From a virus (Duplodnaviria > Caudoviricetes): a stretch of DNA of 38,526 nt. Within the stretch, counting starts at the first letter, position 1; the number at the start of each line of letters is the position of its first letter. Below are positions 6,379 to 38,324 of the stretch, one piece after another. Position numbers and translations under genes: made by a program. The stretch covers positions 1-38,526 of IMG/VR virus record IMGVR_UViG_3300022930_000016; one strand, given 5' to 3'. Under the pieces are notes generated by a model. That model was not told where the DNA came from, searched no databases, and worked only from the letters and a program-made list of their open reading frames with translations.

Positions 6379-6804
6379 TTAATTTTTTAGTTCTTTTTCA
6401 CGTGCTAAATGCGCATCGTATTCATCTACAAAATACCCTACACGTTTTCTTTTTGCATAAATATAAGCTAACCATTTTTTGTTTCTTTTATCCCAATAAA
6501 CACCATGATATTTACTTGTTTTATCTTTTCCGTAAACATTAAAAAGAACAGCGTTTTGTAGATGCTCTGCTATGTAGGCTCTTTCGATAATTTTCATATC
6601 GTTTTCTTCACACTCAACAATAATTTCTTTTATGTGAGCATCCCAACCATATTTTTCTACAGATTCTCTTAATAATTTATTACTACTACCTATTTTATGT
6701 TTAGTATATCTTTTATTAAGTGATTTAGTAGATCCGATATAAACACCGCCATTAGGACTGGTGATTTTATACACGCATACTATTAACGGAGTTCGCTTTC
6801 GCAT
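6379..6804 (-). CDS. GIY-YIG endonuclease with C-terminal AP2-like DNA-binding domain
   Basis: CVYKIT...VYIGST...R...ERAYI; SKYHGVYWDKRNKKWLAYI...VGYF.DE.DA..AR. Confidence 0.85.
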   Translation of the reverse strand: MRKRTPLIVCVYKITSPNGGVYIGSTKSLNKRYTKHKIGSSNKLLRESVEKYGWDAHIKEIIVECEENDMKIIERAYIAEHLQNAVLFNVYGKDKTSKYHGVYWDKRNKKWLAYIYAKRKRVGYFVDEYDAHLAREKELKN

Positions 6805-9530: not shown

Positions 9531-12500
9531 TTAAGGGTAAACTTCGAATTTAATTGATGCCGATGTAGCTGACATTTCCGTTAAAACGCCCGCTACATTT
9601 GTAATTACTAAATTCATTGTATTAGCTGTCGGATTTGTAATATATGCATCGTATCCCGCAACATTTGTAGACAATGTGATGTTTCCCCAACTCTTACCCA
9701 TCTGGAAAGCACCTGATAATGTAGCGGTATAATCTCCTGTTGAATTTCTACTCCATATAACCGTACCTCCTAATGAGTTTTCTAATACTGTCGCTATAGG
9801 TGCGTTGGTGCTTGTTTGCGACAATAAAGCTGTATATACCTTATACGGTCTCACTCCTACTGTTGCTGTAGTAACAAAAGCCGTTGTCGCAATTTGCGTA
9901 GTATTAGTTCCTGCTGTTGCAGTTGGTGCGGTTGGCGTTCCTGTTAATGCCGGGCTTGCTATATCGGCTTTTAAATCTAACTGCGATTTAATTACAACGT
10001 GATTCGCAGTTACTCCGGCAATAGTAGATAAGTTACCAATAGGCAACGAAGCGTTTCCGTTTCTGGTTATTTCCATTAAAGCCGTACCGAATCTGGAAAA
10101 CCTAAACGCCGGCGTTGTAAGGGTTGAATAATCCACATTTGTTCCCTGCCTTACATTTAGCTCCATATCCGGCAGAGGATTTGTATTTGGTGTGCCTGAT
10201 ATAATCTTTAATCCTGTGGCATCTGCGGATTTGCTGAATATCGACGGAACTGTATTTGATGTGGCCGCATTTCCGTGCGCAATACTTCCGGCTATTAAAC
10301 TGTTTACATTCGCATTGTTACCGCTAGTGCCTGTAAAAATATCTAGTTTGCTTATAGGCGAAACTGTACCAATCCCTAAACGTTTATTCGTGTTATCCCA
10401 TATAAATCCGCTATCTCCAGTAACTGTACTTGCACTATTCCAAAAGGAAATATAACCGTTTGTTCCTGTTCCGGTAACAATATTGGCAGGTATCATCTTT
10501 ATAAAATCTTCATATCTGGACGTGTATCCTATCGTTTCAAAATTTACATAGTCTTTTAGTCCATTGTAACCATTGTTAATAGTTACTTTAGAATCTGATA
10601 TACCATTGTTTATCAACTCTTTTAAAGTGCTTTGGCTGTCAATCCTAAAAGAATAAAGCTCTGCTTCTTCGGTAAAAGTAGGCGTTCTGTTATGTGAACT
10701 TGCATCACATACAACTGAGAAAATCCCTGTTCCGGACTTTATTAAACTAGGATACCCGTAAAATCTGTAATCCGAAGCTTTTGGTCTAGGAATATTATGC
10801 TTTAAAGAATATGCTGTCTGAGAACTATAAACAGCTTCTGCTTTTTGAGTGTAAACCCTGAGCATGTCATACATTTGAGAGGGGCTGTCTGCATGGGTTA
10901 TTTTTCTTTCAGTGGTGACAACTATTAAATCGTCCGTAACACTATCATAAAGCATCCCTACCGGTGTACCAACTGAATAATTTAAATCACTCCATAAATT
11001 AGCAACTCCTTTGTAAGAGAAAGTAACACCGTCTGAAGAGTTATATTGATAAAAAGAAGGCTGTCCTGGGGTTGAATAATCGTTATTTCTGGCAATAAGG
11101 ATACTTTTACCTCCGGCAATATCTACTATTACGGGCTCTACTGCATTATTTGATATTGAATTTACTATTACTGAATTTGTAATAGATGTAAAGTTGTTTG
11201 TTGATTTGTAAAGTCTGAATTTATTTACTGCTGATTCTGTCAGATAAGATGCAAAATATACGTCAGAACCTCTTTTTAATAGTGTACCAAAAGGAACCTC
11301 GTTAGTTATGGCGACGTTATTTTCTATTATTGTATATGTGCCCCAAGTCGCACCGTTGTCACTACTTTTAACGTATCCAATATCTACATGTGTGCTAGTA
11401 TTCGCTTGATACCTCCTTAACACAACTACCACATCGTTATTCGGCAAAACCCCTAATACGTAATTTCTATCATCGTAAGCATCATTAAATATAGAAAATT
11501 CCGCACCCCACGAAACGCCTTCATCAGTGCTTATTTTTCCTGCCAAATATCCATCATTCCCAGTATGTAGAAAAGCCGTAGATTTTCTGTAAACCATTAA
11601 AATATTATTATTTGACAGCCTTGTAATATGCGGTTCGGAATTAGAAGATGTTTCCGGATCGTCTATTTCTTTGTACCCGTTAAAAAAACGACCTGTTAAT
11701 TCTTCGGCATCATATCCTGTAACAGCTTTTTTTAGGTTTGCTAAAGTTACTTTTTTAGGCAATCCAGAAGCCGAACCGTCAGAAATAGCAAAATTATCTA
11801 TATCTGTGATCGTTCCTTTATTTGGCAATGCAGATATTTGCGCGCCTAAATCACCGCTAAAATATCCTGCTACCACCCACCTGTTATTCACAGGCTCATA
11901 AGTCCAGGCCCATGTATCGTAAGTTTTAACACTTGGAGGAAAATAATCGACTACTCCTGACGCTCCAATGGTTAGATTAGATATATTAGAATCAAAAGCA
12001 ATATAAACGGTTTTTGCTTCTGTTACCGTTGGCAAATTTATTGTGTAGTTTGTTATTGGACTACCTGAAACATCTAAATAATCTTCTTCAGGAGTAATGT
12101 TTCTTGTGCCCCCATTTACAGCTGTTACATATCCCCAAGATATATCTGTATCTGTTTGTATTTCATTTATTAGATTTGATAAATCCTGAGCCGTGCCTGT
12201 ATAACCTCCTTTATCCAATTTTAAAGTCAAAGCGTCATAAACGGCATTTTCACTTGGCACAGTGGCTGTAAAACCGCTCCTAATAGTCTGCACGACCCCT
12301 GAGAACTCCACATCAATAGGTATTGCAACTGCTAAACTCCAATAAGTACCGTTTGACACTAATACATTTAATTCTTCAGTTGTAATTATATCTGCCCCTC
12401 CTCCAACATTTAAAAAAGTTCCTTTACCAACAAACATCCATTCTGTTGAATCTGTTACAGGTAATGTTTCTCCACTGTTAACAGTTGTAGGATTGAATGC

Positions 12501-12671
12501 TAAAGAAGATACCGTGCCGATATATGAAGATATTAAATCTGCAAGCCCTTGCACTGTACCCTGCCCCAATAATGTTGAAACCTCGTGAGGCAACAAGTCT
12601 GTTAAACTCCAAGGTTTAGGGACTAATTCACCTACTCTTACTGTTGTTATTTCTGCCGGATTTATTGCCAT
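9531..12671 (-). CDS. Tail fiber/spike with an Asp-box (BNR) sialidase-like beta-propeller
   Basis: Asp boxes STDEGVSW, SSDNGATW, SSDGVTF; fiber repeat SPALTGTPTAPTA..TNTTQIATTAFV; last gene of the tail module. Confidence 0.8.
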   Translation of the reverse strand: MAINPAEITTVRVGELVPKPWSLTDLLPHEVSTLLGQGTVQGLADLISSYIGTVSSLAFNPTTVNSGETLPVTDSTEWMFVGKGTFLNVGGGADIITTEELNVLVSNGTYWSLAVAIPIDVEFSGVVQTIRSGFTATVPSENAVYDALTLKLDKGGYTGTAQDLSNLINEIQTDTDISWGYVTAVNGGTRNITPEEDYLDVSGSPITNYTINLPTVTEAKTVYIAFDSNISNLTIGASGVVDYFPPSVKTYDTWAWTYEPVNNRWVVAGYFSGDLGAQISALPNKGTITDIDNFAISDGSASGLPKKVTLANLKKAVTGYDAEELTGRFFNGYKEIDDPETSSNSEPHITRLSNNNILMVYRKSTAFLHTGNDGYLAGKISTDEGVSWGAEFSIFNDAYDDRNYVLGVLPNNDVVVVLRRYQANTSTHVDIGYVKSSDNGATWGTYTIIENNVAITNEVPFGTLLKRGSDVYFASYLTESAVNKFRLYKSTNNFTSITNSVIVNSISNNAVEPVIVDIAGGKSILIARNNDYSTPGQPSFYQYNSSDGVTFSYKGVANLWSDLNYSVGTPVGMLYDSVTDDLIVVTTERKITHADSPSQMYDMLRVYTQKAEAVYSSQTAYSLKHNIPRPKASDYRFYGYPSLIKSGTGIFSVVCDASSHNRTPTFTEEAELYSFRIDSQSTLKELINNGISDSKVTINNGYNGLKDYVNFETIGYTSRYEDFIKMIPANIVTGTGTNGYISFWNSASTVTGDSGFIWDNTNKRLGIGTVSPISKLDIFTGTSGNNANVNSLIAGSIAHGNAATSNTVPSIFSKSADATGLKIISGTPNTNPLPDMELNVRQGTNVDYSTLTTPAFRFSRFGTALMEITRNGNASLPIGNLSTIAGVTANHVVIKSQLDLKADIASPALTGTPTAPTATAGTNTTQIATTAFVTTATVGVRPYKVYTALLSQTSTNAPIATVLENSLGGTVIWSRNSTGDYTATLSGAFQMGKSWGNITLSTNVAGYDAYITNPTANTMNLVITNVAGVLTEMSATSASIKFEVYP

Positions 12672-12673
12672 TT

Positions 12674-13261
12674 TTAAGGTAATTTCATTATAAATAATTG
12701 TACAAATGATTTTTGCATTATGCTTAAAGGAGCTTCTGTTGAAAGAGGATTTACAGAGTTTACATATGTGTGATTTCCTTCTGGCTGTAGATTTGTTGCC
12801 ATAACATACACGTGTGAACCTCCTGCATTATCCGACCCTGATACAGGTACTGTTAAATCCATTTTAGGAACATTATTTTTTGTTATAGCTTTTGTGTTCT
12901 CTCCAATCTGTTGGCGCATTGTGTCATACGGAATGTCTCCAAATCCTATAAATGTAGCACCTGAACAATTAAAACCTGTCCCGTTATTTCCGTTTATAAT
13001 TGCCCACCCATTCCACAATCCATCTGTTTTACCAAGTCCATCTTCATCGAAATTCTGAGTAACATATAAATTGGAAACATTTAATTGTTTTACTTCAAAA
13101 GGCTGATAATTTACGCTTGGCACTAACGGTAGTATTTCAGCAACTGTACCCCTGTACAAAACACCTCCTATTGAGTGCACTATTATGCTTTCGGCAGTGA
13201 TTGGAGCCACTGGCAGTTCTTCTGCATTAACTGTTGTTATTTGGTTTGGATCTATAGCCAT
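12674..13261 (-). CDS. Tail collar-like / short fiber protein
   Basis: GWAIINGNNGT collar-like motif; C-terminal IMQKSFVQLFIMKL. Confidence 0.65.
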   Translation of the reverse strand: MAIDPNQITTVNAEELPVAPITAESIIVHSIGGVLYRGTVAEILPLVPSVNYQPFEVKQLNVSNLYVTQNFDEDGLGKTDGLWNGWAIINGNNGTGFNCSGATFIGFGDIPYDTMRQQIGENTKAITKNNVPKMDLTVPVSGSDNAGGSHVYVMATNLQPEGNHTYVNSVNPLSTEAPLSIMQKSFVQLFIMKLP

Positions 13262-13767
13262 TATTGTACTTTTATTATTTCGTTTACATCTCCTGTGTTA
13301 AGCAGTATATTTGGGTCTCCATTATTTAAAACAACACCTCCTAAATCTTGCACTAATGGTTTTCCAAATCCTAATATAGTTCCTGAAAAACTCATAAATT
13401 CACCCACTGCTTCAGTAGAACTTAAATCAATTATTGTTCCTTTTCCGTAATCTACTATTGGGTATATTGTGCCTTGTATTTTCCAATCAAGCAGTATTTT
13501 TTGACGTTTTAACATCTTTATTCGATCGTAAGAAGCAATATTAAAAACACCTCCTGCAACTGTTGTATTTATCTGAAGTCCTGAAAAGGGGATTGAATAG
13601 CTTTGAACTAACGCTTTGTCTGTTTTCCATCCTTCATTTTCTCGGGTTGTAGTTTCTAGAGTTTCGGTGCTTTCTTCTATGCCGTTACTAGTTAAACAGC
13701 CTATAGGCATGTAAACGCCGTTTATCTTTATGAATAAAATCCTATCTTCTCCGTTTACGTAGTTCAT
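13261..13767 (-). CDS. Second tail tube-fold protein (distal tail component)
   Basis: PIGCLTSN..E mirrors PVACLTSN in the major tail protein. Confidence 0.7.
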   Translation of the reverse strand: MNYVNGEDRILFIKINGVYMPIGCLTSNGIEESTETLETTTRENEGWKTDKALVQSYSIPFSGLQINTTVAGGVFNIASYDRIKMLKRQKILLDWKIQGTIYPIVDYGKGTIIDLSSTEAVGEFMSFSGTILGFGKPLVQDLGGVVLNNGDPNILLNTGDVNEIIKVQ

Positions 13768-16153: not shown

Positions 16154-18018
16154 GATAAAGATAACGATCCCCCTAATCTGTTGTTTCTGTCTAAAGTATT
16201 ATTCAAAACTCCTAAAAGCGATGTTCCTGATATTTCAAAAACTACGGTTCCTCCGTTTGATGATGAACCACTAGAAAAGCTACTTGATGAAGCAGGAGAA
16301 CTATAAGATGCTCCAGTGCTTAATCCTCCGGAAGAACCTCCACTACTCATAGACCCCCCTAATCCTTTTACACTGCCTTTTACTGCACTCCCTAACGCGA
16401 CTAATGCGGCACCTGCCGCGATAGCCACATATGGATTAAGGGTTTTTAAAGAAGTTTGTATTGCTAGTATTCCTATACCGGTAGTTATTGCCATTTTTCC
16501 TAATTCTGAAAGAACTCCACCAAGTGTAGACAAAAGAGATCTTCCGACAGCGGTAATTACATTTCCTCCAGTAGTAAAAGCCTCTCCTAAAGCGTCAGCA
16601 AGACCCGATAACGTATCTACTATTCCGTTATTTATAATATCGCTCATGCTTTTATTAAACTTTTGGAGTACCTCTAAGGATTTCAAACTTGCTACATTAA
16701 AATAACTTGGAATATTTTTAAGGCTTGTGGATATAACGCCTTCTGCTCCCTCTACGTTTTTCGATATTTTAACCACCATGCCAGACAACGAAACCAATCC
16801 ATCAAGCCCGGTCTGAGTTATGGAAACATCCAACCCGTTAACCTGTGGAGTATCGTATGTTTTTTTAGAAGCTTTTTCTTTTTGAGTCTCTAATTTTATA
16901 AACCCGGCATAATTTTTCTCCAAGCTGTCAGTTAGCCTGTCTTGATCTTGTACATTTTTTTTCAATTCTCCTCCAAGACCCTGAAGCGTTTGAGAATATT
17001 TAAATGCGGCCAAAGCTGTTTTTTCCGCTTTAGTCAAACTATTTGCTCTCCCTTCAGTAAGTTCTTTTTCAAGATCAATTTCGCCTCTTAGTTGCTTATT
17101 TAAAATAACAGCCGCATCAAACGCTTCTTGCTTCGTTAATCTGTATTGTTTGAATTGAGAAGCAATAGCATTATTTATGTTGTTTTGTATTTTTTCTTCT
17201 TCCTCTGCAAGTTTTACGATCCTGTCTGTTAATGCCGTTGCTTTTGCTTTAGCTATTAAAGCCTGTGTAACGCCTCTTACTGCGTTTGCAACATTTCCAT
17301 TAAGTATTTGTTCTTGTGTTAGATTGCCAAAATAAGCAGGGTATTCATCTTGTAATTTTTTAACTGCTAATAACCTGTCACTCATAGATAGATTTATGTT
17401 TTTAGCCACTGAAACATAAGCCCCCAGAGAGGATATTTGAGCCTGTGAATTTTTAACAGTTTCAACAGATAATTCCTGCATAGCTCTACGTGCTTCGTCA
17501 AAATTACCGCTTAGCTTATTAAAAACATCACCCACTGTCAATCCCTTTTGACTCATATATGTAAGCCCTGAAGTAACTAAAGAAACAGCCAGAAGCAAGC
17601 CTCCTGTACCTAATAAAGATGAAGCTACAGCTTTAAACGCTTCTTTAGCACTTCCGGTTTCTTTAACCAAGTAACTAAATGATTCCGCTGTAGCGGTTAT
17701 ATTATTTCCAATACCCATTATACCAAACGGCGCATCTTGAGCAATACGTGAAAACTGCATAAGCGCATTGCTTCCATTCGCTACTTTAGGAGTTAAATCT
17801 TTTTGAAACGATGCTCCTGTATCCTTAGCTGTTTGTTTTAGGTCGTTAAGATATTTTTTAGCATCTTTTATCTGAGAGTTTATTTCTTTGGTATCTAAGC
17901 CTAATTTTATTTGAATAGCTTTTTCGTTCGCAAGTTGTTGAATATCTGATTCAACCTCGTCGAATTTCTTCTGCCATTCTTTTATGTCGGCTCCAATTCC
18001 TATTTCAAGATTTGCCAT
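16150..18018 (-). CDS. Tape measure protein
   Basis: Ala/Gly-rich helical protein, RIAQDAPFGIMGIGNNI, follows the tail chaperones. Confidence 0.85.
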   Translation of the reverse strand: MANLEIGIGADIKEWQKKFDEVESDIQQLANEKAIQIKLGLDTKEINSQIKDAKKYLNDLKQTAKDTGASFQKDLTPKVANGSNALMQFSRIAQDAPFGIMGIGNNITATAESFSYLVKETGSAKEAFKAVASSLLGTGGLLLAVSLVTSGLTYMSQKGLTVGDVFNKLSGNFDEARRAMQELSVETVKNSQAQISSLGAYVSVAKNINLSMSDRLLAVKKLQDEYPAYFGNLTQEQILNGNVANAVRGVTQALIAKAKATALTDRIVKLAEEEEKIQNNINNAIASQFKQYRLTKQEAFDAAVILNKQLRGEIDLEKELTEGRANSLTKAEKTALAAFKYSQTLQGLGGELKKNVQDQDRLTDSLEKNYAGFIKLETQKEKASKKTYDTPQVNGLDVSITQTGLDGLVSLSGMVVKISKNVEGAEGVISTSLKNIPSYFNVASLKSLEVLQKFNKSMSDIINNGIVDTLSGLADALGEAFTTGGNVITAVGRSLLSTLGGVLSELGKMAITTGIGILAIQTSLKTLNPYVAIAAGAALVALGSAVKGSVKGLGGSMSSGGSSGGLSTGASYSSPASSSSFSSGSSSNGGTVVFEISGTSLLGVLNNTLDRNNRLGGSLSLS

Positions 18019-18684: not shown

Positions 18685-19134
18685 TTATACGCTTGGAGCT
18701 AATGGATCAGTTGTTGAAATACCGCCAGAACCATTAATAGTTAAAGAAAACGTTGCAAATTCATCACCTGCCGGAGCTTCTAACCCTAAAGAAGTTAAGA
18801 TTCCGTTTCCGTAATAGATTAATCCAGTAGTCCCTGAATCCATTTTCCAGTTTACTTTTACTTTAGATTGCTGAACTTCTAACAAATAATCGTGTGAAGC
18901 TTTTGTATCATCGCCACCAACAGAAGTAGTGTCGATTGCAATTGCGTCAGCTGTCAATGTATAAGAGAATGTTCCTGCTTGTGTTTCAGTAACTCCAGGA
19001 GCACATTTAGTTTGAGCTTCAATAACCCCTAACTCAGTATCTAAACTGTTAGATGTTAAACATGCAACAGGACGGTACAAAGCACCATCGTTAACGTAAA
19101 GAATAAGGCCTTCGCCTTTGATTTTATCGGCCAT
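18685..19134 (-). CDS. Major tail tube protein
   Basis: Tube-protein pattern (VACLTSNSL...YYGNGILTSL...ATFSLTINGSG) and synteny. Confidence 0.85.
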   Translation of the reverse strand: MADKIKGEGLILYVNDGALYRPVACLTSNSLDTELGVIEAQTKCAPGVTETQAGTFSYTLTADAIAIDTTSVGGDDTKASHDYLLEVQQSKVKVNWKMDSGTTGLIYYGNGILTSLGLEAPAGDEFATFSLTINGSGGISTTDPLAPSV

Positions 19135-19141
19135 GTTGTTT

Positions 19142-19570
19142 TTATTTTAATGTTAAATTTAATCTTAAGAATGATCTGTAAATATTATCAGTATCAGTAA
19201 CCGTTTCCAATGATGTTTCGTAAGTGATTTTTTGCGTAACATTTGTAAATCCTTGTATTGTTAATTTAGGATTTAAAACATCCATAACCGCCTGCTCAAT
19301 ATCATTTAATAACGCTCTGCTTCCCGTATTTCCTGCGCTTGAATAACGGGTGTAAATTTCAATTAATAAGGAAGCCTCCCATTCATATTCACATTTAGTA
19401 TTTTTCAATACATCTTTGTCTTGCGCAGTCATTAAAATGTATTCCGTTAAATTTGCATTACCTGTCAGGCGACTATCAAAAGTTTTAATAGTTTTCCCAT
19501 GAACCACAATATTGTTTGTAGCGTCATAAACAGCTTTTCTAATAAATTTATCAGGATTAACATTTACCAT
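19142..19570 (-). CDS. Tail terminator/completion protein
   Basis: Position immediately before the tail tube; size. Confidence 0.7.
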   Translation of the reverse strand: MVNVNPDKFIRKAVYDATNNIVVHGKTIKTFDSRLTGNANLTEYILMTAQDKDVLKNTKCEYEWEASLLIEIYTRYSSAGNTGSRALLNDIEQAVMDVLNPKLTIQGFTNVTQKITYETSLETVTDTDNIYRSFLRLNLTLK

Positions 19571-19574
19571 GTTG

Positions 19575-19582
19575 TAAAAGTA
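19575..19582 (-). promoter_or_regulatory. -7-like element 4 nt before ATG
   Basis: TACTTTTA-N4-ATG. Confidence 0.4.
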
Positions 19583-20098
19583 CTAAATTTTCTTATTCAA
19601 ACGCTTTAAAACGTTTTCTAAATTTTTTTTATAATCTTTTTTTCCTTTAACATATGCCGGATATAAAAAAGGTTGTGGATTTACTCCCGCTCCCAATATC
19701 TTGGCTAATATCACATAAGCAAACTTTTCATCTATTCCTTTTGATCTGCACCATACTTTTATCGACTCCAAACCTTGTTTGTAACTACCTTGTTTTTTAC
19801 CTTTAAAAGACTTTGCCATTTCTGCAAATTCAGCAGGAACTTTTACTTTTGCTCCCGTTCCAAATTCCATGTAAGCACCATAAAATTCATTAACTGTTAC
19901 CTTTCTATGTAATGGCTCTGGTTTGCTGTGAGAAATGCTCTGAGCTAATTTACCAAAATTCTTAGGCGCGTTCTTTTTAGCGTCTCCTTCAATCTGTACA
20001 GCAATGGCTTCAGTCTCAAGCTCTATCAGTTTTTCTGCTTGCTTTCCGAACTTCTGCAATTCATTAAGGGTCTTGGCAACACCTTTTATATTAGCCAT
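19583..20098 (-). CDS. HK97 gp10-like neck/tail-completion protein
   Basis: AKKNAP..FGKLAQSI, YGAYMEFGT, PQPFLYPA; start set at ATG 20098. Confidence 0.85.
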   Translation of the reverse strand: MANIKGVAKTLNELQKFGKQAEKLIELETEAIAVQIEGDAKKNAPKNFGKLAQSISHSKPEPLHRKVTVNEFYGAYMEFGTGAKVKVPAEFAEMAKSFKGKKQGSYKQGLESIKVWCRSKGIDEKFAYVILAKILGAGVNPQPFLYPAYVKGKKDYKKNLENVLKRLNKKI

Positions 20099-20414
20099 TA
20101 GCAATAATATTTAATTCCCTGAATAATTCATCATTGTAACGAATATCATTTACAACACGGTTAACTCCTTTGTATTCTATTGTTAAGTTGTCTATATTAT
20201 CAGGTGTTATTTTAGGCGTAGCACGAATATTAAACGACCAGTTATCTTTAATATCTGATTTGCCTATGCTATAATCACGATAAGCAGAATTCTGCTTTAA
20301 TTCAGCCCAAAATGAGCCTATTAAAACTTCTTCTACAGTATTACCACCATAACCATCAGGAATGTTAGTTGTACTGTAAATCTTAATTCTTTTATCGTAT
20401 TGTCTTGCTAGCAT
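20091..20414 (-). CDS. Head closure (head-tail joining) protein
   Basis: YDKRIKI...DGYGG...WAE, SPP1 gp16-like; start set at ATG 20414. Confidence 0.8.
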   Translation of the reverse strand: MLARQYDKRIKIYSTTNIPDGYGGNTVEEVLIGSFWAELKQNSAYRDYSIGKSDIKDNWSFNIRATPKITPDNIDNLTIEYKGVNRVVNDIRYNDELFRELNIIANG

Positions 20415-20620
20415 GGTAATTTTTCTATTTCCTCTTTTACTTTTTCGTACCAATCAATAATAGCAACACCAGATCTTCCAAAATCCTCTTTAATAGCTGT
20501 TATTATTAAATCAACTGATTCAGAAGCGCATGTTTTTGCACATCCAACATCGTGAATATAGCTATGTAGGTTTAAAAAAGTACCTACCATTTCATGTGCT
20601 TTCTCTCTAGGTGTTTCCAT
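20408..20620 (-). CDS. Small protein inserted in the neck module; paralog of 34264-34533
   Basis: Shared EKA.E...AK.CA...VD.I...Y.KVK.E pattern. Confidence 0.65.
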   Translation of the reverse strand: METPREKAHEMVGTFLNLHSYIHDVGCAKTCASESVDLIITAIKEDFGRSGVAIIDWYEKVKEEIEKLPC

Positions 20621-20623
20621 AAT

Positions 20624-21079
20624 TTATATAAATCTTTTTTCAACGTCCAAAGCTTCAGTTACACTAATCGGTATCATTTGACTATTAACTTGTTTCTCGC
20701 TTTCGTAGTACCAAATTTTAATCATCTGTAAAGCCGATTGAATAAAAATGTCTGGAACTTCTTCCGGAGTTTCATATCCTACATTTAAAGTAACCGTTTT
20801 GTTATCTGGATAAATAGTGTACATTGTGCGTGTTAAACTCCATGGTGCCGGATCTGTTGGAGCGACAACTGAGTTAATCGGATAATCATATACTTTTACC
20901 TGACAACTACCATTATAAACAATATCACGTGCATACATAAAATGCCTTGTTCTTTGTTCAACGTATCTTAATGACGCATTAATCATTGAAGTTATTTCCG
21001 TATCATCCTCTGTTAAATCAGGATCTATACGTAAATAGTTTTTAGCTCTTGCAAGTGGTATAACTGATATGTATGACAT
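20624..21079 (-). CDS. Head-tail connector (gp6/gp15-like adaptor)
   Basis: LARAKNYLRID...DD..I..MI.A...VE; VPDIFIQSALQMIKIWY. Confidence 0.9.
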   Translation of the reverse strand: MSYISVIPLARAKNYLRIDPDLTEDDTEITSMINASLRYVEQRTRHFMYARDIVYNGSCQVKVYDYPINSVVAPTDPAPWSLTRTMYTIYPDNKTVTLNVGYETPEEVPDIFIQSALQMIKIWYYESEKQVNSQMIPISVTEALDVEKRFI

Positions 21080-21318
21080 TATAAATCTTTATTTAGATTC
21101 TTAATATGTTTGTCGTGAGCTTCCGGAGTTGACACGCTTGAAACACCGTCTTTTCGTTGTTTAGGCAGTTTTTTACTTTTTGGTTCTTTATATTCTGTTT
21201 TGCTTACAGGTTTAACGCCAACGCCTACACGCAATAAATAACCGCCTCTTTGCTCTGTTACTTCAATAGTGTCTCCTGCCGTATGGTCTAAATGATCTTT
21301 TAATAATTTGATTTTCAT
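21079..21318 (-). CDS. Small head-module protein with ribosomal L9-N-like domain and basic tail
   Basis: MKIKLLKDH...GDTIEV..RG.YLLRVG resembles the L9 N-domain pattern. Confidence 0.65.
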   Translation of the reverse strand: MKIKLLKDHLDHTAGDTIEVTEQRGGYLLRVGVGVKPVSKTEYKEPKSKKLPKQRKDGVSSVSTPEAHDKHIKNLNKDL

Positions 21319-21338
21319 AACTATTAGTTTTATAGTTT

Positions 21339-21346
21339 CAAAGATA
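21339..21346 (-). promoter_or_regulatory. -7 element restarting minus-strand transcription after the moron
   Basis: TATCTTTG upstream of ATG 21318. Confidence 0.6.
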
Positions 21347-21358
21347 ATAAAAATATTG

Positions 21359-21390
21359 TTGCGTATTTAAAAAATGTTTTTGTATATTTG
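21359..21390 (+). promoter_or_regulatory. Plus-strand promoter of the moron
   Basis: TATATTTG at 21383-21390 with an upstream TTG. Confidence 0.7.
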
Positions 21391-21417
21391 TCATTCGCTA
21401 CAACTAAAAACATAAAT

Positions 21418-21460
21418 AAAACGTCATTCTTTGTAGCGAGGGGTGGCGTTTTTATTATTT
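21418..21460 (+). terminator. Leader terminator/attenuator hairpin
   Basis: 14-bp stem with 4 G-U pairs, loop TGTAGCG, followed by a U-rich tract. Confidence 0.6.
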
Positions 21461-21474
21461 AAATACATTATATT

Positions 21475-21816
21475 ATGAACAATTATGAAATTACGCACAA
21501 AGGAATTAAATATAAAGCAAAAGGGGAAAAACTAATGAAGACCATGATGTATTGGTGCTTTCAAAATGATATAGATTTAGATGAAGTAGAATCATGCGTT
21601 TTGGTAAAGACTACAAACAGATTTAGTAAGTTAAAAATAAAACATAGCTTTATATCTGATTTAGTTTTAGATTGTAAAAGAAGTTCAGGAGCTCCGTTTT
21701 CTACCATAACAGGGCATTCTTTAAGAATTGATTTTGTTTCTAAAAATAGCGGTGATGCAGACACCGAAATCAGCGACTTGTTTAGCAGGCTTTCTGAAAT
21801 GCAAGCTAATAAATAA
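21475..21816 (+). CDS. Moron protein of unknown function (113 aa)
   Basis: Own promoter and A-rich start context. Confidence 0.65.
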   Translation: MNNYEITHKGIKYKAKGEKLMKTMMYWCFQNDIDLDEVESCVLVKTTNRFSKLKIKHSFISDLVLDCKRSSGAPFSTITGHSLRIDFVSKNSGDADTEISDLFSRLSEMQANK

Positions 21817-21846
21817 ACAAAAAGCCTGTACTGATCTACAGGCTTT
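21817..21846 (-). terminator. Hairpin, probably terminating minus-strand (glycosyltransferase) transcripts
   Basis: AAAGCCTGTA-CTGATC-TACAGGCTTT, perfect 10-bp stem; T-run on the minus strand. Confidence 0.65.
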
Positions 21847-21860
21847 AAAAAAATCATATT

Positions 21861-22064
21861 ATGAAAACAAATGACTTTATAAATGCCAATATCGGTAAAA
21901 TGGTTAAAATATATGATGGTGCATTAGGGTTTTCTTATAAACACTTAATGTATCCGCCCAGTCCATTACTTCTAATTGGGTTATCAAAAAGAGGTTTAGC
22001 TCACGTTAAAGATGCTTTTCATAATGATTACTATATCAAACCAAGTGCTTTTCGCCTATGGTAG
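21861..22064 (+). CDS. Moron protein of unknown function (67 aa, SH3/KOW-like beta pattern)
   Basis: ORF with A-rich start; 3' end overlaps the GT 3' end convergently. Confidence 0.55.
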   Translation: MKTNDFINANIGKMVKIYDGALGFSYKHLMYPPSPLLLIGLSKRGLAHVKDAFHNDYYIKPSAFRLW

Positions 22065-23166
22065 GATTGTAGATAACAGCCAACCTTCTTTCAATAGCCG
22101 ATAAAGCACGTTCTTTTGGCAAATCTACAATTTCATCTATTTTGTATTTTTGTACGACTGCTGTAATCTTTACAGTCATTACATTTTCTTTATACCATTC
22201 TAAGCATGAATCAAAAAAGCTTATCCAATGTTCTTCTTTGCCTAATTCATCAAACTCAGGTACTTTTAAATCTCTGAGTAAAATATCATCAAACGGAATA
22301 TTATCCATTTCAAACGGTACAGTATAGCCGTTAACACCGTTCGTAATTTGCTCTTTTCCGGATGCAAAAGGCGTAATTATACAAGGGGTTTTAACTTGCA
22401 TTGCTTCGTAAACCGAGTATGCAAATCCCTCCGTATCTGATAACTGAACTAAATAATCAGCTTTGTTAATTTCTTTGTGGGGTTCGGTTGTGATTCCTTT
22501 GAAATGTATGTTAGGACAATTAACAAACTGTTTCATTAAAGTAATAGCGTATTGGCTCGATGTATCGCCCCAAACATTCCAAACGTAATCAATGCCTTTT
22601 GCGTCCAACTGCCTGGCTAATTGCTTCATACGATTAAATCCTTTTTCACCAGATAAACGAGAACACGTAATTAGCGTTAACACTTTGTTTTTAGGCTTTT
22701 TAGCGTACTTAATTGTATTGTCTAATAGATTATATATAATTGCCTCGCTTTTCAATTTAGTAACGTGTTCGAAGCCGATTTTAACCGTTTCACCAACGCA
22801 AACATGGTGCGTTACCAATCCGTTAGGTTTGTAATTAAATGCCCATCCGTCTATAATATGTCTATAGTCGGCATGAACCATTTGTATATAACATTTAGCT
22901 TTAATAGCATCAAATGCGCTCTTGCCCCATGCTGAGCTTGAAATAAATAAATCGAATGAATATGTTTGCTTAAAATTAACCTTTACAACCTCACAATATT
23001 CTTTCATTTCATCAACTAATGATTGGTTTGCAACATTATCATAAAGTAAAGTAACATTGTAGTAAACCGACATTCTTTTACAAAAGTTCTTTGTCATTGT
23101 CTCAACTCCGCCTAACAAATTCCAGTTACTTAAATAAATTCCGATAGTTTCTTTTCGTTTTTCCAT
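22036..23166 (-). CDS. GT-B fold glycosyltransferase (GT4-like) with C-terminal L9-N-like domain
   Basis: GGVET, SRLSGEKG, EGFAYSVYEAM (E-x7-E), PCIIT...NGVNG. Confidence 0.9.
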   Translation of the reverse strand: MEKRKETIGIYLSNWNLLGGVETMTKNFCKRMSVYYNVTLLYDNVANQSLVDEMKEYCEVVKVNFKQTYSFDLFISSSAWGKSAFDAIKAKCYIQMVHADYRHIIDGWAFNYKPNGLVTHHVCVGETVKIGFEHVTKLKSEAIIYNLLDNTIKYAKKPKNKVLTLITCSRLSGEKGFNRMKQLARQLDAKGIDYVWNVWGDTSSQYAITLMKQFVNCPNIHFKGITTEPHKEINKADYLVQLSDTEGFAYSVYEAMQVKTPCIITPFASGKEQITNGVNGYTVPFEMDNIPFDDILLRDLKVPEFDELGKEEHWISFFDSCLEWYKENVMTVKITAVVQKYKIDEIVDLPKERALSAIERRLAVIYNPTIGEKHLV

Positions 23167-23170
23167 AAAG

Positions 23171-23178
23171 TAAATTTA
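23171..23178 (-). promoter_or_regulatory. -7-like element 4 nt before the GT ATG
   Basis: TAAATTTA-N4-ATG, directly after the capsid terminator. Confidence 0.45.
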
Positions 23179-23180
23179 AT

Positions 23181-23211
23181 AAAAAACCTCCAATCTTTCG
23201 AAAGGAGGTTT
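23181..23211 (-). terminator. Terminator after the major capsid gene
   Basis: AAACCTCC...GGAGGTTTTTT on the minus strand. Confidence 0.8.
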
Positions 23212-23232
23212 AATTTTATAATTCAATTCCGA

Positions 23233-24462
23233 CTATACAGACGGCGTGGCAAGTGAACCTTTTACAATAGCATCATCATTGAAGATTACCAAAGTAATTC
23301 TTTCCTCGATTCTAAACATCACTTTGTTTTGTTTAGCCAATGTAGAATCTTCAAACATTCTTAATTCTGGATTCAAACGATTAACTAACAAAGTAGCAGT
23401 TCTATCGAAAGCTAAGAAGTTATCGGCTCCTAATTGAGTAGTAGTAGCGATATTTAATCCTGCAACTCTTAACCTTCCGTTTTCGAAAGCAACAGTTCCT
23501 GGAGGAAGATCATATTCTCCAGATCCTTCAGCTTTGTTCAATCCTATTTTAACACCGTCACGAACATTTAAAATAGCTGTGTTTCCTTGATAGAACTCGA
23601 AAGTATCTTCCGGGATCTGACCATATGCCGCATCTACAATTTTATCAACTGCGGCAGTAAAAGTTCCATCGTAAGCCGTTGCAACATCAATAAGCCCTTG
23701 TACAGGGTTTGAATCGGCAGTACCATTCAAAATGAAGTTGTTTTCTGCTACTTTAAGGCTGATTAGCATTTTAGATTGTAGGTAGCTTAATAACCAATCG
23801 ATATCATCTAGCATGTCACGGTCAACAATTACGTAACCCGCAATCCATTTAACATAAGCAGTTTGCGTAGTTAAATCAAAATCCATTTGTGGCTTGTTCC
23901 CAGAACCTACAACCCATGTAGACGCTCCACCTTCTCCACCGTTTTCTTTTGGATAAATTATTGAGCTTTTTGTTGTGTTACCTTGTGGCAAGTAATCCGA
24001 AAGCCAAACTCTATCATAAGGATTTACAATCAATGCGTTGCGCACGTCTTGAGTAAATGGTGTTGATCCAGGAAAGTTAGCAGCGATGCTCATGTCTCCA
24101 ACTGCTTTAAATTCCATTGCTAAATCAGGAGCGTTTTTCTTGAAGTTTTGGATAGCTTCTTTATTCTCCATGATAACGTCAGCCAAATACTCATTGAAAG
24201 TTTTAGTTTCAGTATTTTTGTCTCCATTAGCTTGTTTTAAACGAATGTCCAATTTATCCAAGTGATCCTGCATAGCAAGTGATTTCTTTTGGAAATCAGC
24301 TTTTACAGCTTCAATTTCGGCATCAATCTTTTCAGATTGTCCTTTATATTTAATCTCTACTTGTTCTATTGCGTTTTGCAAATCAACTTTCGATTTTTCT
24401 TCAAATTTTAACGTAAGGTCTGCTTTTAAACCTTCTAATTCCGTTTTGATATCTAATTCCAT
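23233..24462 (-). CDS. Major capsid protein, HK97 fold with N-terminal coiled-coil scaffold domain
   Basis: Coiled-coil N-terminus; KPQMDFD...IAGYVIVDRDMLDD; ILNGT; NKVMFRIEERI. Confidence 0.95.
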   Translation of the reverse strand: MELDIKTELEGLKADLTLKFEEKSKVDLQNAIEQVEIKYKGQSEKIDAEIEAVKADFQKKSLAMQDHLDKLDIRLKQANGDKNTETKTFNEYLADVIMENKEAIQNFKKNAPDLAMEFKAVGDMSIAANFPGSTPFTQDVRNALIVNPYDRVWLSDYLPQGNTTKSSIIYPKENGGEGGASTWVVGSGNKPQMDFDLTTQTAYVKWIAGYVIVDRDMLDDIDWLLSYLQSKMLISLKVAENNFILNGTADSNPVQGLIDVATAYDGTFTAAVDKIVDAAYGQIPEDTFEFYQGNTAILNVRDGVKIGLNKAEGSGEYDLPPGTVAFENGRLRVAGLNIATTTQLGADNFLAFDRTATLLVNRLNPELRMFEDSTLAKQNKVMFRIEERITLVIFNDDAIVKGSLATPSV

Positions 24463-30185: not shown

Positions 30186-30644
30186 TTAATTTCCTATTTG
30201 TATTCCTGCCATTACTGAATTAACGTTATCGTAAGATCCAACAACCTGAATATTATCACTAACATAATAACCAAAACGTATTCCAACTGCTAAATATAAT
30301 TTTTGTTTCTCCTGAATACCGTTAATGCGTTGGTCTAAATATGCAGTTCCAAGTTTTCCGGTTATGGTAATTGAATCGAATGTACCGCCAACTTCTCCAA
30401 ACAAAGCCGGAACAACATCTGATTTTAGATCGTGAATTTTTTTATTCACATCGTTTTTGTTGGCTCGTTTTTCAACTGTTCCGGCATCTACTAAAGAAGC
30501 AGAAAAACCAAAGTTTAAAAATTCTTCGTTTTGGTATGTGTAACCAATTTCGATTGCTTTATATCCTGCTGATGCATGGATTTGTGATTGTGCATTTACG
30601 TTTAGGTAAATTAAAATTAATGCGAGTGTGGCTAATTTTTTCAT
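30186..30644 (-). CDS. Secreted outer-membrane beta-barrel-like protein
   Basis: Signal peptide ending NVNA-Q; alternating amphipathic beta strands. Confidence 0.6.
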   Translation of the reverse strand: MKKLATLALILIYLNVNAQSQIHASAGYKAIEIGYTYQNEEFLNFGFSASLVDAGTVEKRANKNDVNKKIHDLKSDVVPALFGEVGGTFDSITITGKLGTAYLDQRINGIQEKQKLYLAVGIRFGYYVSDNIQVVGSYDNVNSVMAGIQIGN

Positions 30645-34535: not shown

Positions 34536-35339
34536 TTAAAAAAGTGTTGGTTCGTGAATTATTCCTCTTATTCTTTTTTTACAAATTTCAACATATTCAG
34601 CAGAAATTTCACTACCTATAAAATTTCTTTTATTTATAATTGACATTTTAGCTACAGTTCCTGAACCCATGAACGGATCATAAACCAAATCATTTTCGTT
34701 GCTCCATGATAAAATATGATCTTCTGCTAATTTTTCAGGAAAAATTGACGGATGTTCAAAAGCCACTTTATCTTTAGAGGAATGTAAAAAACCAGTATTA
34801 TAATTCCATACATTCCCTTTTATTTTATCAGGCTTAATATTACCTCGCTCTTTATTGCTTCTTAGCTTTTTGTTTATTTCTTCATGCGATCCATATTTTT
34901 GACCAGTTCTATCAGAATCTTTTCCAAACCACTTACAAGGTATTTTTATAGGATTAAATGTTTTTGGCTTTCCTTTTGATAATATAAACATGTACTCAAA
35001 CTCTTGCTCATATCTATTATGATTCATTGTTAAACCTGTCTTATGGTAAATCATAGTATCATGTAAACTGAACCCTATTTCTTTAAAAAATAATGCTTGT
35101 TTAAAACTTGTTCCGCTTTCACTCCCTTTAATCGTTGAATCTCCTACAACCCAAACTAAAACACCTCCTTTTTTAATTGTTCTATACAACTCTTTTGCTA
35201 TGTTTTCAAAGTCAAAAGAATAACCTTTATATTCCCTTAAATTATCGTAAGGAGGAGATGTTAATACAAGATCTATATATTCATCATTCATCCAACCCAT
35301 TGTTTTTAAGCAATTTTCATTATATGTTTTGTTAATCAT
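34536..35339 (-). CDS. Orphan DNA methyltransferase, beta class N4-C/N6-A
   Basis: TSPPY catalytic motif before HPSIFP and DPFMGSGT. Confidence 0.95.
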   Translation of the reverse strand: MINKTYNENCLKTMGWMNDEYIDLVLTSPPYDNLREYKGYSFDFENIAKELYRTIKKGGVLVWVVGDSTIKGSESGTSFKQALFFKEIGFSLHDTMIYHKTGLTMNHNRYEQEFEYMFILSKGKPKTFNPIKIPCKWFGKDSDRTGQKYGSHEEINKKLRSNKERGNIKPDKIKGNVWNYNTGFLHSSKDKVAFEHPSIFPEKLAEDHILSWSNENDLVYDPFMGSGTVAKMSIINKRNFIGSEISAEYVEICKKRIRGIIHEPTLF

Positions 35340-37122: not shown

Positions 37123-37800
37123 TTAAAATTCGTTTCGGTTATCTTTTTTAGGTAATTTAATTGATTCTTTTTCCTGTTTATTAAGCCAGTAAACAAAATG
37201 CGTACAATATTCGGTTTTATTATTCTTAAATTGAAATTGTACGTTAATCATATCATTATACTTTTTTAAAAATTCTTTAACCTCGTTAGGCTTAAATTTT
37301 TTATCAGATTGCATAGAAGTGTTTTCAATCCATGATTCTGATATAATCAACTCATTAAAAATTAAATCATTTTTGTTTAATGGTTTTATAGTTTCTAAGT
37401 TAATGGTTAATGGTTTATCTATACTATCAATGCTTTCTCCTGTGCTTTCGTGTTGCTTTGATGCGTGCTTTTTAATTGCTTTGTCAAGTGCTTTATCAAG
37501 TGCTTTGTCAAAATTTACTAAAGCAACTATGTTAGCAGAATACTGGTTTTTGCTTCTTTCTATCATTTCAATAAATCCCCAATCAACTAAATCGTTAAGC
37601 GTTTTAATGTATGTATTGTATGATTTTATACCTATTGCATCCTTTACCATTTCGGTTGGGAATCCGAACTTCTTACGCCATCCTAAACGGTTGCAATGTT
37701 CAATAGCGAAAAAATAAACCGCCGAGTGATTAGGAGAAATCTTTTCAGGATTCTCAAAACACCAATCAAACCACATTCTAGAAAGTTCATATCCGTTCAT
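37123..37800 (-). CDS. Replication initiator (wHTH, lambda O-like organisation)
   Basis: N-terminal wHTH pattern, repeat-encoded linker, directly upstream of DnaB. Confidence 0.8.
   Translation of the reverse strand: MNGYELSRMWFDWCFENPEKISPNHSAVYFFAIEHCNRLGWRKKFGFPTEMVKDAIGIKSYNTYIKTLNDLVDWGFIEMIERSKNQYSANIVALVNFDKALDKALDKAIKKHASKQHESTGESIDSIDKPLTINLETIKPLNKNDLIFNELIISESWIENTSMQSDKKFKPNEVKEFLKKYNDMINVQFQFKNNKTEYCTHFVYWLNKQEKESIKLPKKDNRNEF
37378..37525. repeat. Putative replication origin: iterons plus AT-rich repeats
   Basis: TGCTTT at 37431, 37443, 37454, 37466, 37477, 37489, 37501; TAATGGTT at 37378, 37401, 37408. Confidence 0.75.
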
Positions 37801-38324
37801 AATTCCCTTATTTTATTCCAACATATTCCACAGAAATAAGTTAAAACCTCAGTCCTGTCATAAATTACACAGCAAGCTTTCTCCATTGAATCAGAAACTT
37901 CATTAACATCTAATTTAGATATAAAATTTTTAATTGATATTCTAAATTTATCAGTTACAGTATATCCTTCAAAAAAACTTTCAAAAACTTCAACAACCTG
38001 GTTTATTTCTAAATCAATAATTTCTTTTTGTTTCTTCAATAAATTTTGATATTGTTTATATTGTTTTTTAGCAAGAATCATTCTTTCCATTTTTGAAACT
38101 AATGTTTCTGGAATGCTTTCTAATTCAGTTCCGCCTTTCCCTCTGTTGCAATCAAAACACGCAGTAATTAAGTTGTCAATAGTATTATTTCCGCCTTTAC
38201 AAACAGGCACTATGTGATCACATTCTAATGGAACTTTAGGAGGTTTTCTCGAACAGTACTGACAAGTAAAATTGTCTCGTTTAAAAACATCAAATCTTTT
38301 TTTTACGCTTATTGATCTACTCAT
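37797..38324 (-). CDS. HNH endonuclease with C-terminal helical domain
   Basis: RDNFTCQYC...DHIVP...GG...NLITACFDCNRGK. Confidence 0.9.
   Translation of the reverse strand: MSRSISVKKRFDVFKRDNFTCQYCSRKPPKVPLECDHIVPVCKGGNNTIDNLITACFDCNRGKGGTELESIPETLVSKMERMILAKKQYKQYQNLLKKQKEIIDLEINQVVEVFESFFEGYTVTDKFRISIKNFISKLDVNEVSDSMEKACCVIYDRTEVLTYFCGICWNKIREL

Follow-up and report, generated by a model that had tools for sequence, protein, structure and literature searches.

A phage glycosyltransferase and a penultimate serine shared by capsid and tail tube: a candidate system of virion O-glycosylation

Why should two unrelated virion proteins of one phage end in the same three residues, and does a glycosyltransferase (GT) encoded beside one of them account for it? 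The question is raised by the virus record IMGVR_UViG_3300022930_000016 (Caudoviricetes), which was analysed entire and is called here the window (38,526 bases, G+C 32.8%). Its major capsid protein and its tail tube protein both end in Pro-Ser-Val, and a GT4-type enzyme is encoded directly behind the capsid gene. The penultimate serine comes and goes with this GT family across several lineages of phages that are unrelated to each other, which makes it likely that the enzyme gives the particle a sugar coat; we put at roughly 0.8 the probability that it O-glycosylates capsid and tail tube at that serine, a reading that comes from the comparison of sequences. The genes and residues concerned are the following.

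23233..24462, minus strand: major capsid protein, HK97 fold, 409 residues, proposed acceptor (PF05065, E 1.5e-19; phrog_10)
22036..23166, minus strand: GT4-type glycosyltransferase of GT-B fold, 376 residues (PF00534, E 4e-17)
18685..19134, minus strand: tail tube protein, 149 residues, proposed acceptor (phrog_1407, major tail protein, E 1.8e-28)
23233..23244, minus strand: capsid tag P407-S408-V409-stop, read from the sequence, with S408 as proposed O-glycosylation site
18685..18696, minus strand: tube tag P147-S148-V149-stop, read from the sequence

The shared ending and the enzyme in the window

The capsid protein ends in GSLATPSV (codons CTT GCC ACG CCG TCT GTA TAG) and the tube protein in DPLAPSV (TTA GCT CCA AGC GTA TAA). 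The original prediction had noticed these endings with their differing codons, and the sequence bears it out; its further remark that no other open reading frame (ORF) ends in PSV holds for all 56 minus-strand ORFs of the window. It had also included LA(T) in the shared motif, which we rejected, since these residues are not conserved and only P-S-V, or more widely the serine, is kept. PSV is kept without exception in capsids whose identity with the first row of their alignment is as low as 22-29%, and what holds generally is a serine in the penultimate position, with PSV in Bacteroidota-type phages and x-S-[A/T/G] in Bacillota-type phages. In the relatives the serine of the capsid tag is written TCT, TCA, TCG, AGC or AGT; because the codon flips between TCN and AGY, selection acts on the residue, as had been proposed, and an origin of the twin endings by DNA duplication was rejected on these switches and on the differing codons.

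For one named pair of proteins, identical last three residues would arise by chance with p ~2e-4. Among all 56 ORFs, about 0.36 such pairs are expected and three are seen, so the window alone is only suggestive, and it is the comparative data that carry the case. In the general O-glycosylation of Bacteroidota, exported proteins are modified at a D-S/T-hydrophobic sequon; Pro, not Asp, precedes the serine in both tags, which therefore do not fit that sequon.

The window gene encodes an intact GT4/GT-B glycosyltransferase, as had been read from its sequence. It scores 62.8 bits against PF00534 (curated cut-off 26.4) and 47.3 against PF13692 (cut-off 27). Its model (pLDDT 88.7) has the two Rossmann domains of the GT-B fold and compares with SPS, BshA and 6eji at Z 27-28 (Foldseek E 5e-12). 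Seven residues, G19, G20, H98, R170, K175, E246 and E254, stay unchanged in all 23 rows of an alignment that reaches down to 28% identity, and we take them to be the Gly loop, the His, the Arg/Lys pyrophosphate pair and the E-x7-E motif. In 401 genomes of the phylum of a Bacteroidota centre no match to the window GT was found at E ≤ 1e-40; it is therefore no housekeeping enzyme of that phylum. The GT profile reaches 609 clusters at 50% identity with E ≤ 1e-30, a number counted by profile score, and the GT tree intermingles capsid families, which is consistent with a mobile gene. As to the proposal of a single-enzyme system, the window does hold one GT4, while some relatives carry two-domain GT2-GT4 fusions of the same family, about 550-590 residues long (L077:9356-11029; also L083, L086, L088, L090, L093, L095 and L096; L and G numbers are our handles for the loci and records compared).

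Co-occurrence of tag and enzyme

We counted penultimate serines in records with a gene of this GT family (carriers) and in those without (non-carriers), capsid family by capsid family. Family A comprises HK97-type, Bacteroidota-like capsids (163 rows, 102 after dereplication at 95%, 101 with GT status). The serine is present in 20/21 carrier capsids against 3/80 in non-carriers, and in 13/14 carrier tubes, again against 3/80. Forty-nine non-carrier records were searched whole (L175 left out) without any match to the GT; 20 of these are at least 90% complete and include the capsid, and the serine occurs in one of them (L139). In close loci with capsids 74-96% identical, carrier capsids end in PSV or PSI, and so do the tubes with the exception of L013, whereas the non-carriers L004, L005, L014 and L015 have other endings.

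Family B has an unrelated, Bacillota-type capsid (phrog_422) and a GT about 30% identical; 97 rows gave 63 representatives, and for 49 of these a GT status is available. Here all 28 carrier capsids have the serine, against 4/21 in non-carriers, and the split extends to head closure (16/24 versus 1/22) and tail terminator (13/23 versus 0/19). A third group, lineage C, comprises 23 loci, 13 of them in records at least 90% complete; among these, capsid-like and tube-like proteins end in PSV in 9/9 carriers, compared with 1/4 capsid-like and 0/4 tube-like proteins in the four non-carriers. In the L400/L418 lineage (G080-G083, G110, G114, G119, G124, G126) we observed the unusual order protease, capsid, tube-like, small Lys-rich protein and portal, with terminase and tail genes elsewhere and portals that often end in PSI, PSV or PSL.

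Kinship was controlled for on FastTree trees built after removal of the last 12 residues (101/103 rows in family A, 49 in family B). Each family gave six independent tree pairs, with 5.0 changing the same way and 0.0 the opposite way in family A (p 0.06), and 3.7 and 0.0 in family B (p 0.125); pooled and rounded, the ratio is about 9:0 (p 0.004). Sister contrasts illustrate the pattern: carrier L272 ends in GNVSI and non-carrier L192 in GNVA, carrier L349 in TSVSA and non-carrier L350 in KPSGT. The original prediction would have been refuted had PSV been equally common in relatives lacking the GT; the frequencies came out unequal, with tag and enzyme gained and lost together both among close relatives and in capsid families without kinship.

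A blind look-up was made for 12 carrier records whose capsid or tube had fallen outside the locus, the missing parts being fetched. Nine of the 12 yielded a new capsid- or tube-like gene, all nine with the penultimate serine, and three yielded nothing new; the endings were PSV (G080-G083, G090), ISA, LSA and VSA, PSA, and TSA. The tag persists also where the GT is distant from the capsid gene, either before the terminase or, in Butyrivibrio phage Arawn, in the replication module. Arawn was found through its GT alone, and its capsid ends in ASV and its tube in TSA; an annotated reverse transcriptase lies behind its tail genes (L236:15859-17004). Cultured carriers are limited to Arawn, Idris and Closwp03, while two of three cultured capsid relatives without a GT match, Bo-Finn (endings AGN and ATP) and B13, lack the serine. 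One apparent counter-example was rejected: the ORF at the capsid position of L094 seemed to end in CVA; the gene is, however, interrupted by a group I intron (RF00028, 19727-19976, E 2e-19), the frame after the intron fits by arithmetic, and the last in-frame segment ends in ELSA. The attribution to a Bacteroidota phage suits the window, but a system confined to Bacteroidota was rejected, as Bacillota-type phages carry GT and tag too.

Several observations weigh against our interpretation. A penultimate serine without the GT is found in L139 (100% complete, GSI), L437 (98%, ESL) and L106 (88%, ASA), the last of which collapsed in the dereplication and, added back, brings the non-carrier capsids of family A to 4/81. 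The same holds for the capsid of the cultured TPDSL_ph2 (KSA), the tube of L102 (VPSV, 38% complete) and four family B fragments (10-28% complete). Conversely, among carriers, the L013 tube ends in DPLA; the L077 and L095 capsids, beside GT2-GT4 fusions, end in SAG with the serine third from the end; 3/23 family B tubes lack the penultimate serine; and so does L148, the family A exception, whose GT4 belongs to a different subfamily (a long branch in the GT tree) and is accompanied by a GT25. In family B the tubes are poorly split (20/23 versus 8/15) and the portals show no split (1/22 versus 6/23). It should be noted that most short contigs were called GT-free only from the slot where the gene usually lies (the capsid-to-adaptor interval), that capsid and tube identity in lineage C rests on position, weak PHROG matches and ESM Atlas leads, that the Fisher comparisons of carriers and non-carriers ignore kinship, and that neither tree test, on FastTree trees, reaches p<0.05 by itself. 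Judging by the fold, a protein acceptor cannot be told from a small molecule or a lipid (top matches SPS, BshA, PglH/PglA), and the Arawn GT sits among replication genes, three genes from a nucleoside 2-deoxyribosyltransferase-like gene.

Other explanations and known systems

The acceptor had been given as PSV-COOH. The ending does track the GT, but the sequon is better written X-Ser-X-COOH, with the serine as the putative sugar-bearing residue. The ending could instead be a docking signal, bound by the GT while the sugar goes to a nearby upstream Ser/Thr or to the carboxyl group. Co-occurrence cannot distinguish binding from acceptor use, and the tails are often rich in Ser/Thr upstream (GSLAT, STTDP, SAPSM). 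We nevertheless consider docking improbable: the hydroxyl-bearing serine is the only tail residue invariant across lineages, whereas the upstream residues are free to vary and some tails, such as IEQAEPSV, have no other nearby hydroxyl.

A comparison with the mycobacteriophages introduces a second alternative. Virion O-glycosylation is described there, in the portions of the papers available, for Che8 gp108-110, Corndog gp38 and Myrna (PMC12363180, PMC13445384, PMC10568470). Our system resembles that of Che8 in having a phage-encoded GT, capsid and tube as (proposed) substrates and a serine near the C-terminal end. It differs in the position of the serine, which is terminal in Che8 (capsid TGS, tube DGS) and penultimate here; in the enzyme, GT4/GT-B here while gp110 is GT25-like and gp108 a GT2 plus methyltransferase; in the presence of one enzyme instead of three, and of a gpFI-like domain; and in the hosts, which are inferred here to be Bacteroidota and Bacillota. 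The C-terminal serine is reportedly the glycosylation site in mycobacteriophage virions (Freeman et al., 2023). None of the Che8 enzymes gp108-110 matches the profile of our GT at E 10. The system, as proposed, works like mycobacteriophage virion glycosylation and is not a member of the Che8 type, because the enzyme is unrelated and the serine position is different.

The likeness to Che8, where capsid and tube end in Ser, would be closer if a host carboxypeptidase trimmed the last residue and the newly terminal serine were then glycosylated, and the residue to be trimmed is indeed small or aliphatic (V, I, A, T, G, L). This is very improbable in our view, as no peptidase was noticed alongside the GT, though no systematic search for one was made, and as relatives with a terminal serine have other enzymes, of GT-A type, which suggests two different modes of recognition.

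Such terminal-Ser, Che8-like capsids were observed beside GT11/GT7C, GT6, GT2, GT25 and methyltransferase cassettes: L024:6977-11818 (GT11/GT6/GT4), L131:11349-15777 (GT2), L137:11578-13691 and L138:11657-13973 (GT11-GT7C), L148:5027-6578 (GT25) and L440:7320-8561 (GT2). In L153, L169 and L171 the capsid has a terminal Ser and no GT was seen. Capsids ending in Thr accompany TOD1/MUCI70-like enzymes in L136:11367-12005, in L149:6471-7109 and in Cellulophaga phage phi17:1 (L237:8795-10018, 11953-13197, 17387-17821), a cultured phage whose capsid ends in SGT and tube in VGT, a candidate third type of tag. These pairings are a lead and not a count, because the loci were chosen after seeing endings and gene gaps.

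A different target altogether, phage DNA or the host surface (serotype conversion or superinfection exclusion), would make the endings merely co-inherited with the GT. The GT-B fold includes lipopolysaccharide and teichoic-acid transferases and the DNA-modifying T4 AGT, and the place of the Arawn gene in a replication module points the same way. T4 AGT (1y6f), at Z 20.6, ranks 31st, against 27.8 for the top GT4. A Pfam scan of the translations of 57 window ORFs revealed no modified-base pathway: neither hydroxymethylase, TET or other base-supply gene nor any gene making the hydroxylated base that goes with T4 AGT/BGT. The earlier statement that base-modification genes are missing thus stands for base supply, and has to be amended for an N6/N4 DNA methylase (34536-35339, minus strand), the only such gene. 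Hitch-hiking, moreover, cannot explain why proteins without homology, encoded kilobases from each other, have one ending; this is seen in at least five capsid families, with repeated loss of the ending upon loss of the GT; and the GT bears a domain of head-assembly type. We regard a DNA or host target as highly improbable.

That the ending serves, independently of the GT, as a signal for a host protease or for structure, as the few GT-free phages with the serine might suggest, is scarcely credible, since close non-carriers (capsids or tubes 74-85% identical) end differently and the 3/80 of non-carrier capsids is no higher than the background of 7% (48/664 unlabelled ORFs).

Glycosylation of protein serines in the cytoplasm by GT4 enzymes has a precedent in the O-GlcNAc transferases GtfA and SdgB, which are about 500 residues long and modify surface adhesins at internal repeats rich in serine. 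Our GT shares their GT-B fold (GtfA, 4pqg, Z 25.6; SdgB, 7ec1, Z 22.6); unlike them it consists of about 320 residues plus a small domain, is 16-17% identical and is paired with a single C-terminal site. Among cultured phages, Arawn gp42 (NC_048848; also in Idris and Closwp03) belongs to the same family, being 29% identical with the GT of the window and scoring E 2e-92 with the profile, while differing from the window in being cultured and in its gene location. The word "glycosyl" is absent from the main text, as available, of the Arawn isolation paper (PMC7372960). We found no paper on this GT family or on a penultimate-Ser phage sequon; Freeman 2023 and Popovic 2012, supplements included, lay outside our coverage and may mention relatives.

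Gene context, a possible mechanism and what it would mean

The minus strand of the window carries a siphophage morphogenesis operon from terminase through tape measure. Its order is terminase, portal, head morphogenesis, prohead protease, HK97-fold capsid, GT and a 79-residue protein, followed by adaptor, head closure, neck, terminator, tail tube, chaperones and tape measure. The capsid is 50% identical to that of a prophage in a Sphingobacteriaceae metagenome-assembled genome, and its best cultured matches are Cellulophaga phages (34% identity), so that a Bacteroidota host is inferred; there is no close cultured phage. A capsid search of genome contigs gave one prophage without the GT (L032).

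A second tail tube paralogue (phrog_1407, 168 residues, 13261-13767, minus strand) lies near the tail tip genes and ends untagged in KVQ. Next to it a 195-residue protein (12674-13261) and a 1046-residue tail fibre or spike with BNR (sialidase-like) propeller and tail-fibre motif (9531-12671, minus strand) have a common N-terminus (MAINP/MAIDP...ITTV). Elsewhere on the minus strand there are GIY-YIG-AP2 and HNH endonucleases (6379-6804 and 37797-38324, respectively) and a 152-residue ORF with a weak outer-membrane beta-barrel match (30186-30644). The roughly 700 bases between the GT and the next small gene (21319-22035) hold small ORFs in opposing orientation and two terminator-like hairpins; this stretch differs among relatives and is likely a moron slot.

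Three further features concern how the enzyme might work.

22072..22182, minus strand: C-terminal domain of the GT, about residues 329-365, with the fold of NTL9, GINS-B and the gpFI C-terminal domain; likely procapsid anchor (profiles, fold)
21079..21318, minus strand: 79-residue post-capsid protein, DUF7210/phrog_829-like, a small domain plus Lys-rich tail (profiles)
23181..23211, minus strand: hairpin with U-run in the capsid-GT gap, terminator-like, which would lower GT relative to capsid expression (fold z -2.6)

The 79-residue protein is probably a gpFI-like packaging chaperone and, in our reading of the sequences, the putative source of the small domain of the GT. That domain aligns with small proteins encoded downstream of capsid genes (13/30 members match DUF7210 and 8/30 L9-N). 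The pairwise BLAST of the domain against the small protein of the window itself is non-significant (E 0.085), and it is profiles and fold that connect the two. Of 132 distinct GT ORFs, 76 contain the domain as a fusion, 24 have it beside them as a separate ORF that overlaps in most cases, and in 32 it went undetected, although the GT alignment shows that some of these 32 are misses. It accompanies the GT even where this precedes the terminase. In the GT-free relatives L004, L005 and L015 the small gene stands at the capsid stop, where elsewhere the GT is inserted or fused; in L012, L073, L270, L272 and L273 the adaptor gene follows the GT at once, and the small protein is present there only as the GT tail.

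Lambda gpFI aids the loading of terminase and DNA on procapsids, according to the part of the source available (PMC4493119). The GT domain is like gpFI in its small fold, and the place straight after the capsid gene is also alike; unlike gpFI, the domain is joined in this family to a glycosyltransferase, by fusion or by translational coupling. In gpFI it is the C-terminal domain that binds the capsid protein. Against that domain (2lsm) the model gives Z 5.8 (rmsd 1.3, 42/43 aligned), a score level with or below those of GINS (Z 6.8) and ribosomal L9 (Z 6.1), which have the same type of fold, and 2lsm is not among the PDB sequence-profile matches of the domain. When the small domain and the capsid protein were modelled as a complex, the score was 0.00, which counts neither for nor against. 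A role of the domain as capsid or procapsid anchor is likely.

Under the glycosylation reading, the GT would be a late gene whose lower output results from read-through of the capsid terminator. A hairpin with U-run stands at this junction also in relatives, with different sequences; a terminator scan of the window did not list the capsid-GT hairpin, and a promoter scan of the window gave matches at chance level. The enzyme would draw on a host nucleotide-sugar, none being made by the phage, and would read the serine plus the following residue plus the free carboxyl end. By analogy with GtfA and SdgB acting on serines, one sugar may be transferred with retention (alpha), while the gpFI-like domain would keep the enzyme on procapsids. 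Other exposed virion proteins, namely head closure, tail terminator and sometimes portal, would acquire the tag secondarily, and the GT2-GT4 fusions of some relatives may extend the first sugar. The likely purpose would be a shield of the virion surface against proteases, grazers, decoy or vesicle binding and, in rumen phages, immunity.

A broader proposal, on which we are evenly divided, is that the GT4 and its gpFI-like procapsid anchor form a mobile two-part module able to sugar any X-Ser-X-COOH protein, and that Bacteroidota and Bacillota phages acquiring it evolve the tag on capsid, tube and then neck. C-terminal codes for virion glycosylation, each specific to its enzyme, would then number three or more: this GT4 would read a penultimate Ser, GT25/GT2/GT6 cassettes a terminal Ser and TOD1/MUCI70-like enzymes a terminal Thr.

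In the literature found, as far as its accessible text goes, chemical demonstration of virion glycosylation by phage enzymes is confined to a few mycobacteriophages. Our results point to a family of enzymes independent of theirs, with a three-residue sequon of its own, in phages from two further phyla and, if this is true, virion glycosylation reaches well beyond mycobacterial phages. The sequence rule predicts which virion proteins are modified, and the claim is directly testable because the cultured Arawn has both GT and tags; Arawn and Bo-Finn, which lacks them, are a cultured comparison pair on one harmless host, B. fibrisolvens DSM 3071. Needing one enzyme and three C-terminal residues, such a tag would moreover offer a compact means of glycosylating proteins or therapeutic phages site-specifically. 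If the module exists as proposed, sugar-coated virions would be common among freshwater, soil and rumen phages, which raises the question of what benefit a sugar coat brings to phages that never meet antibodies.

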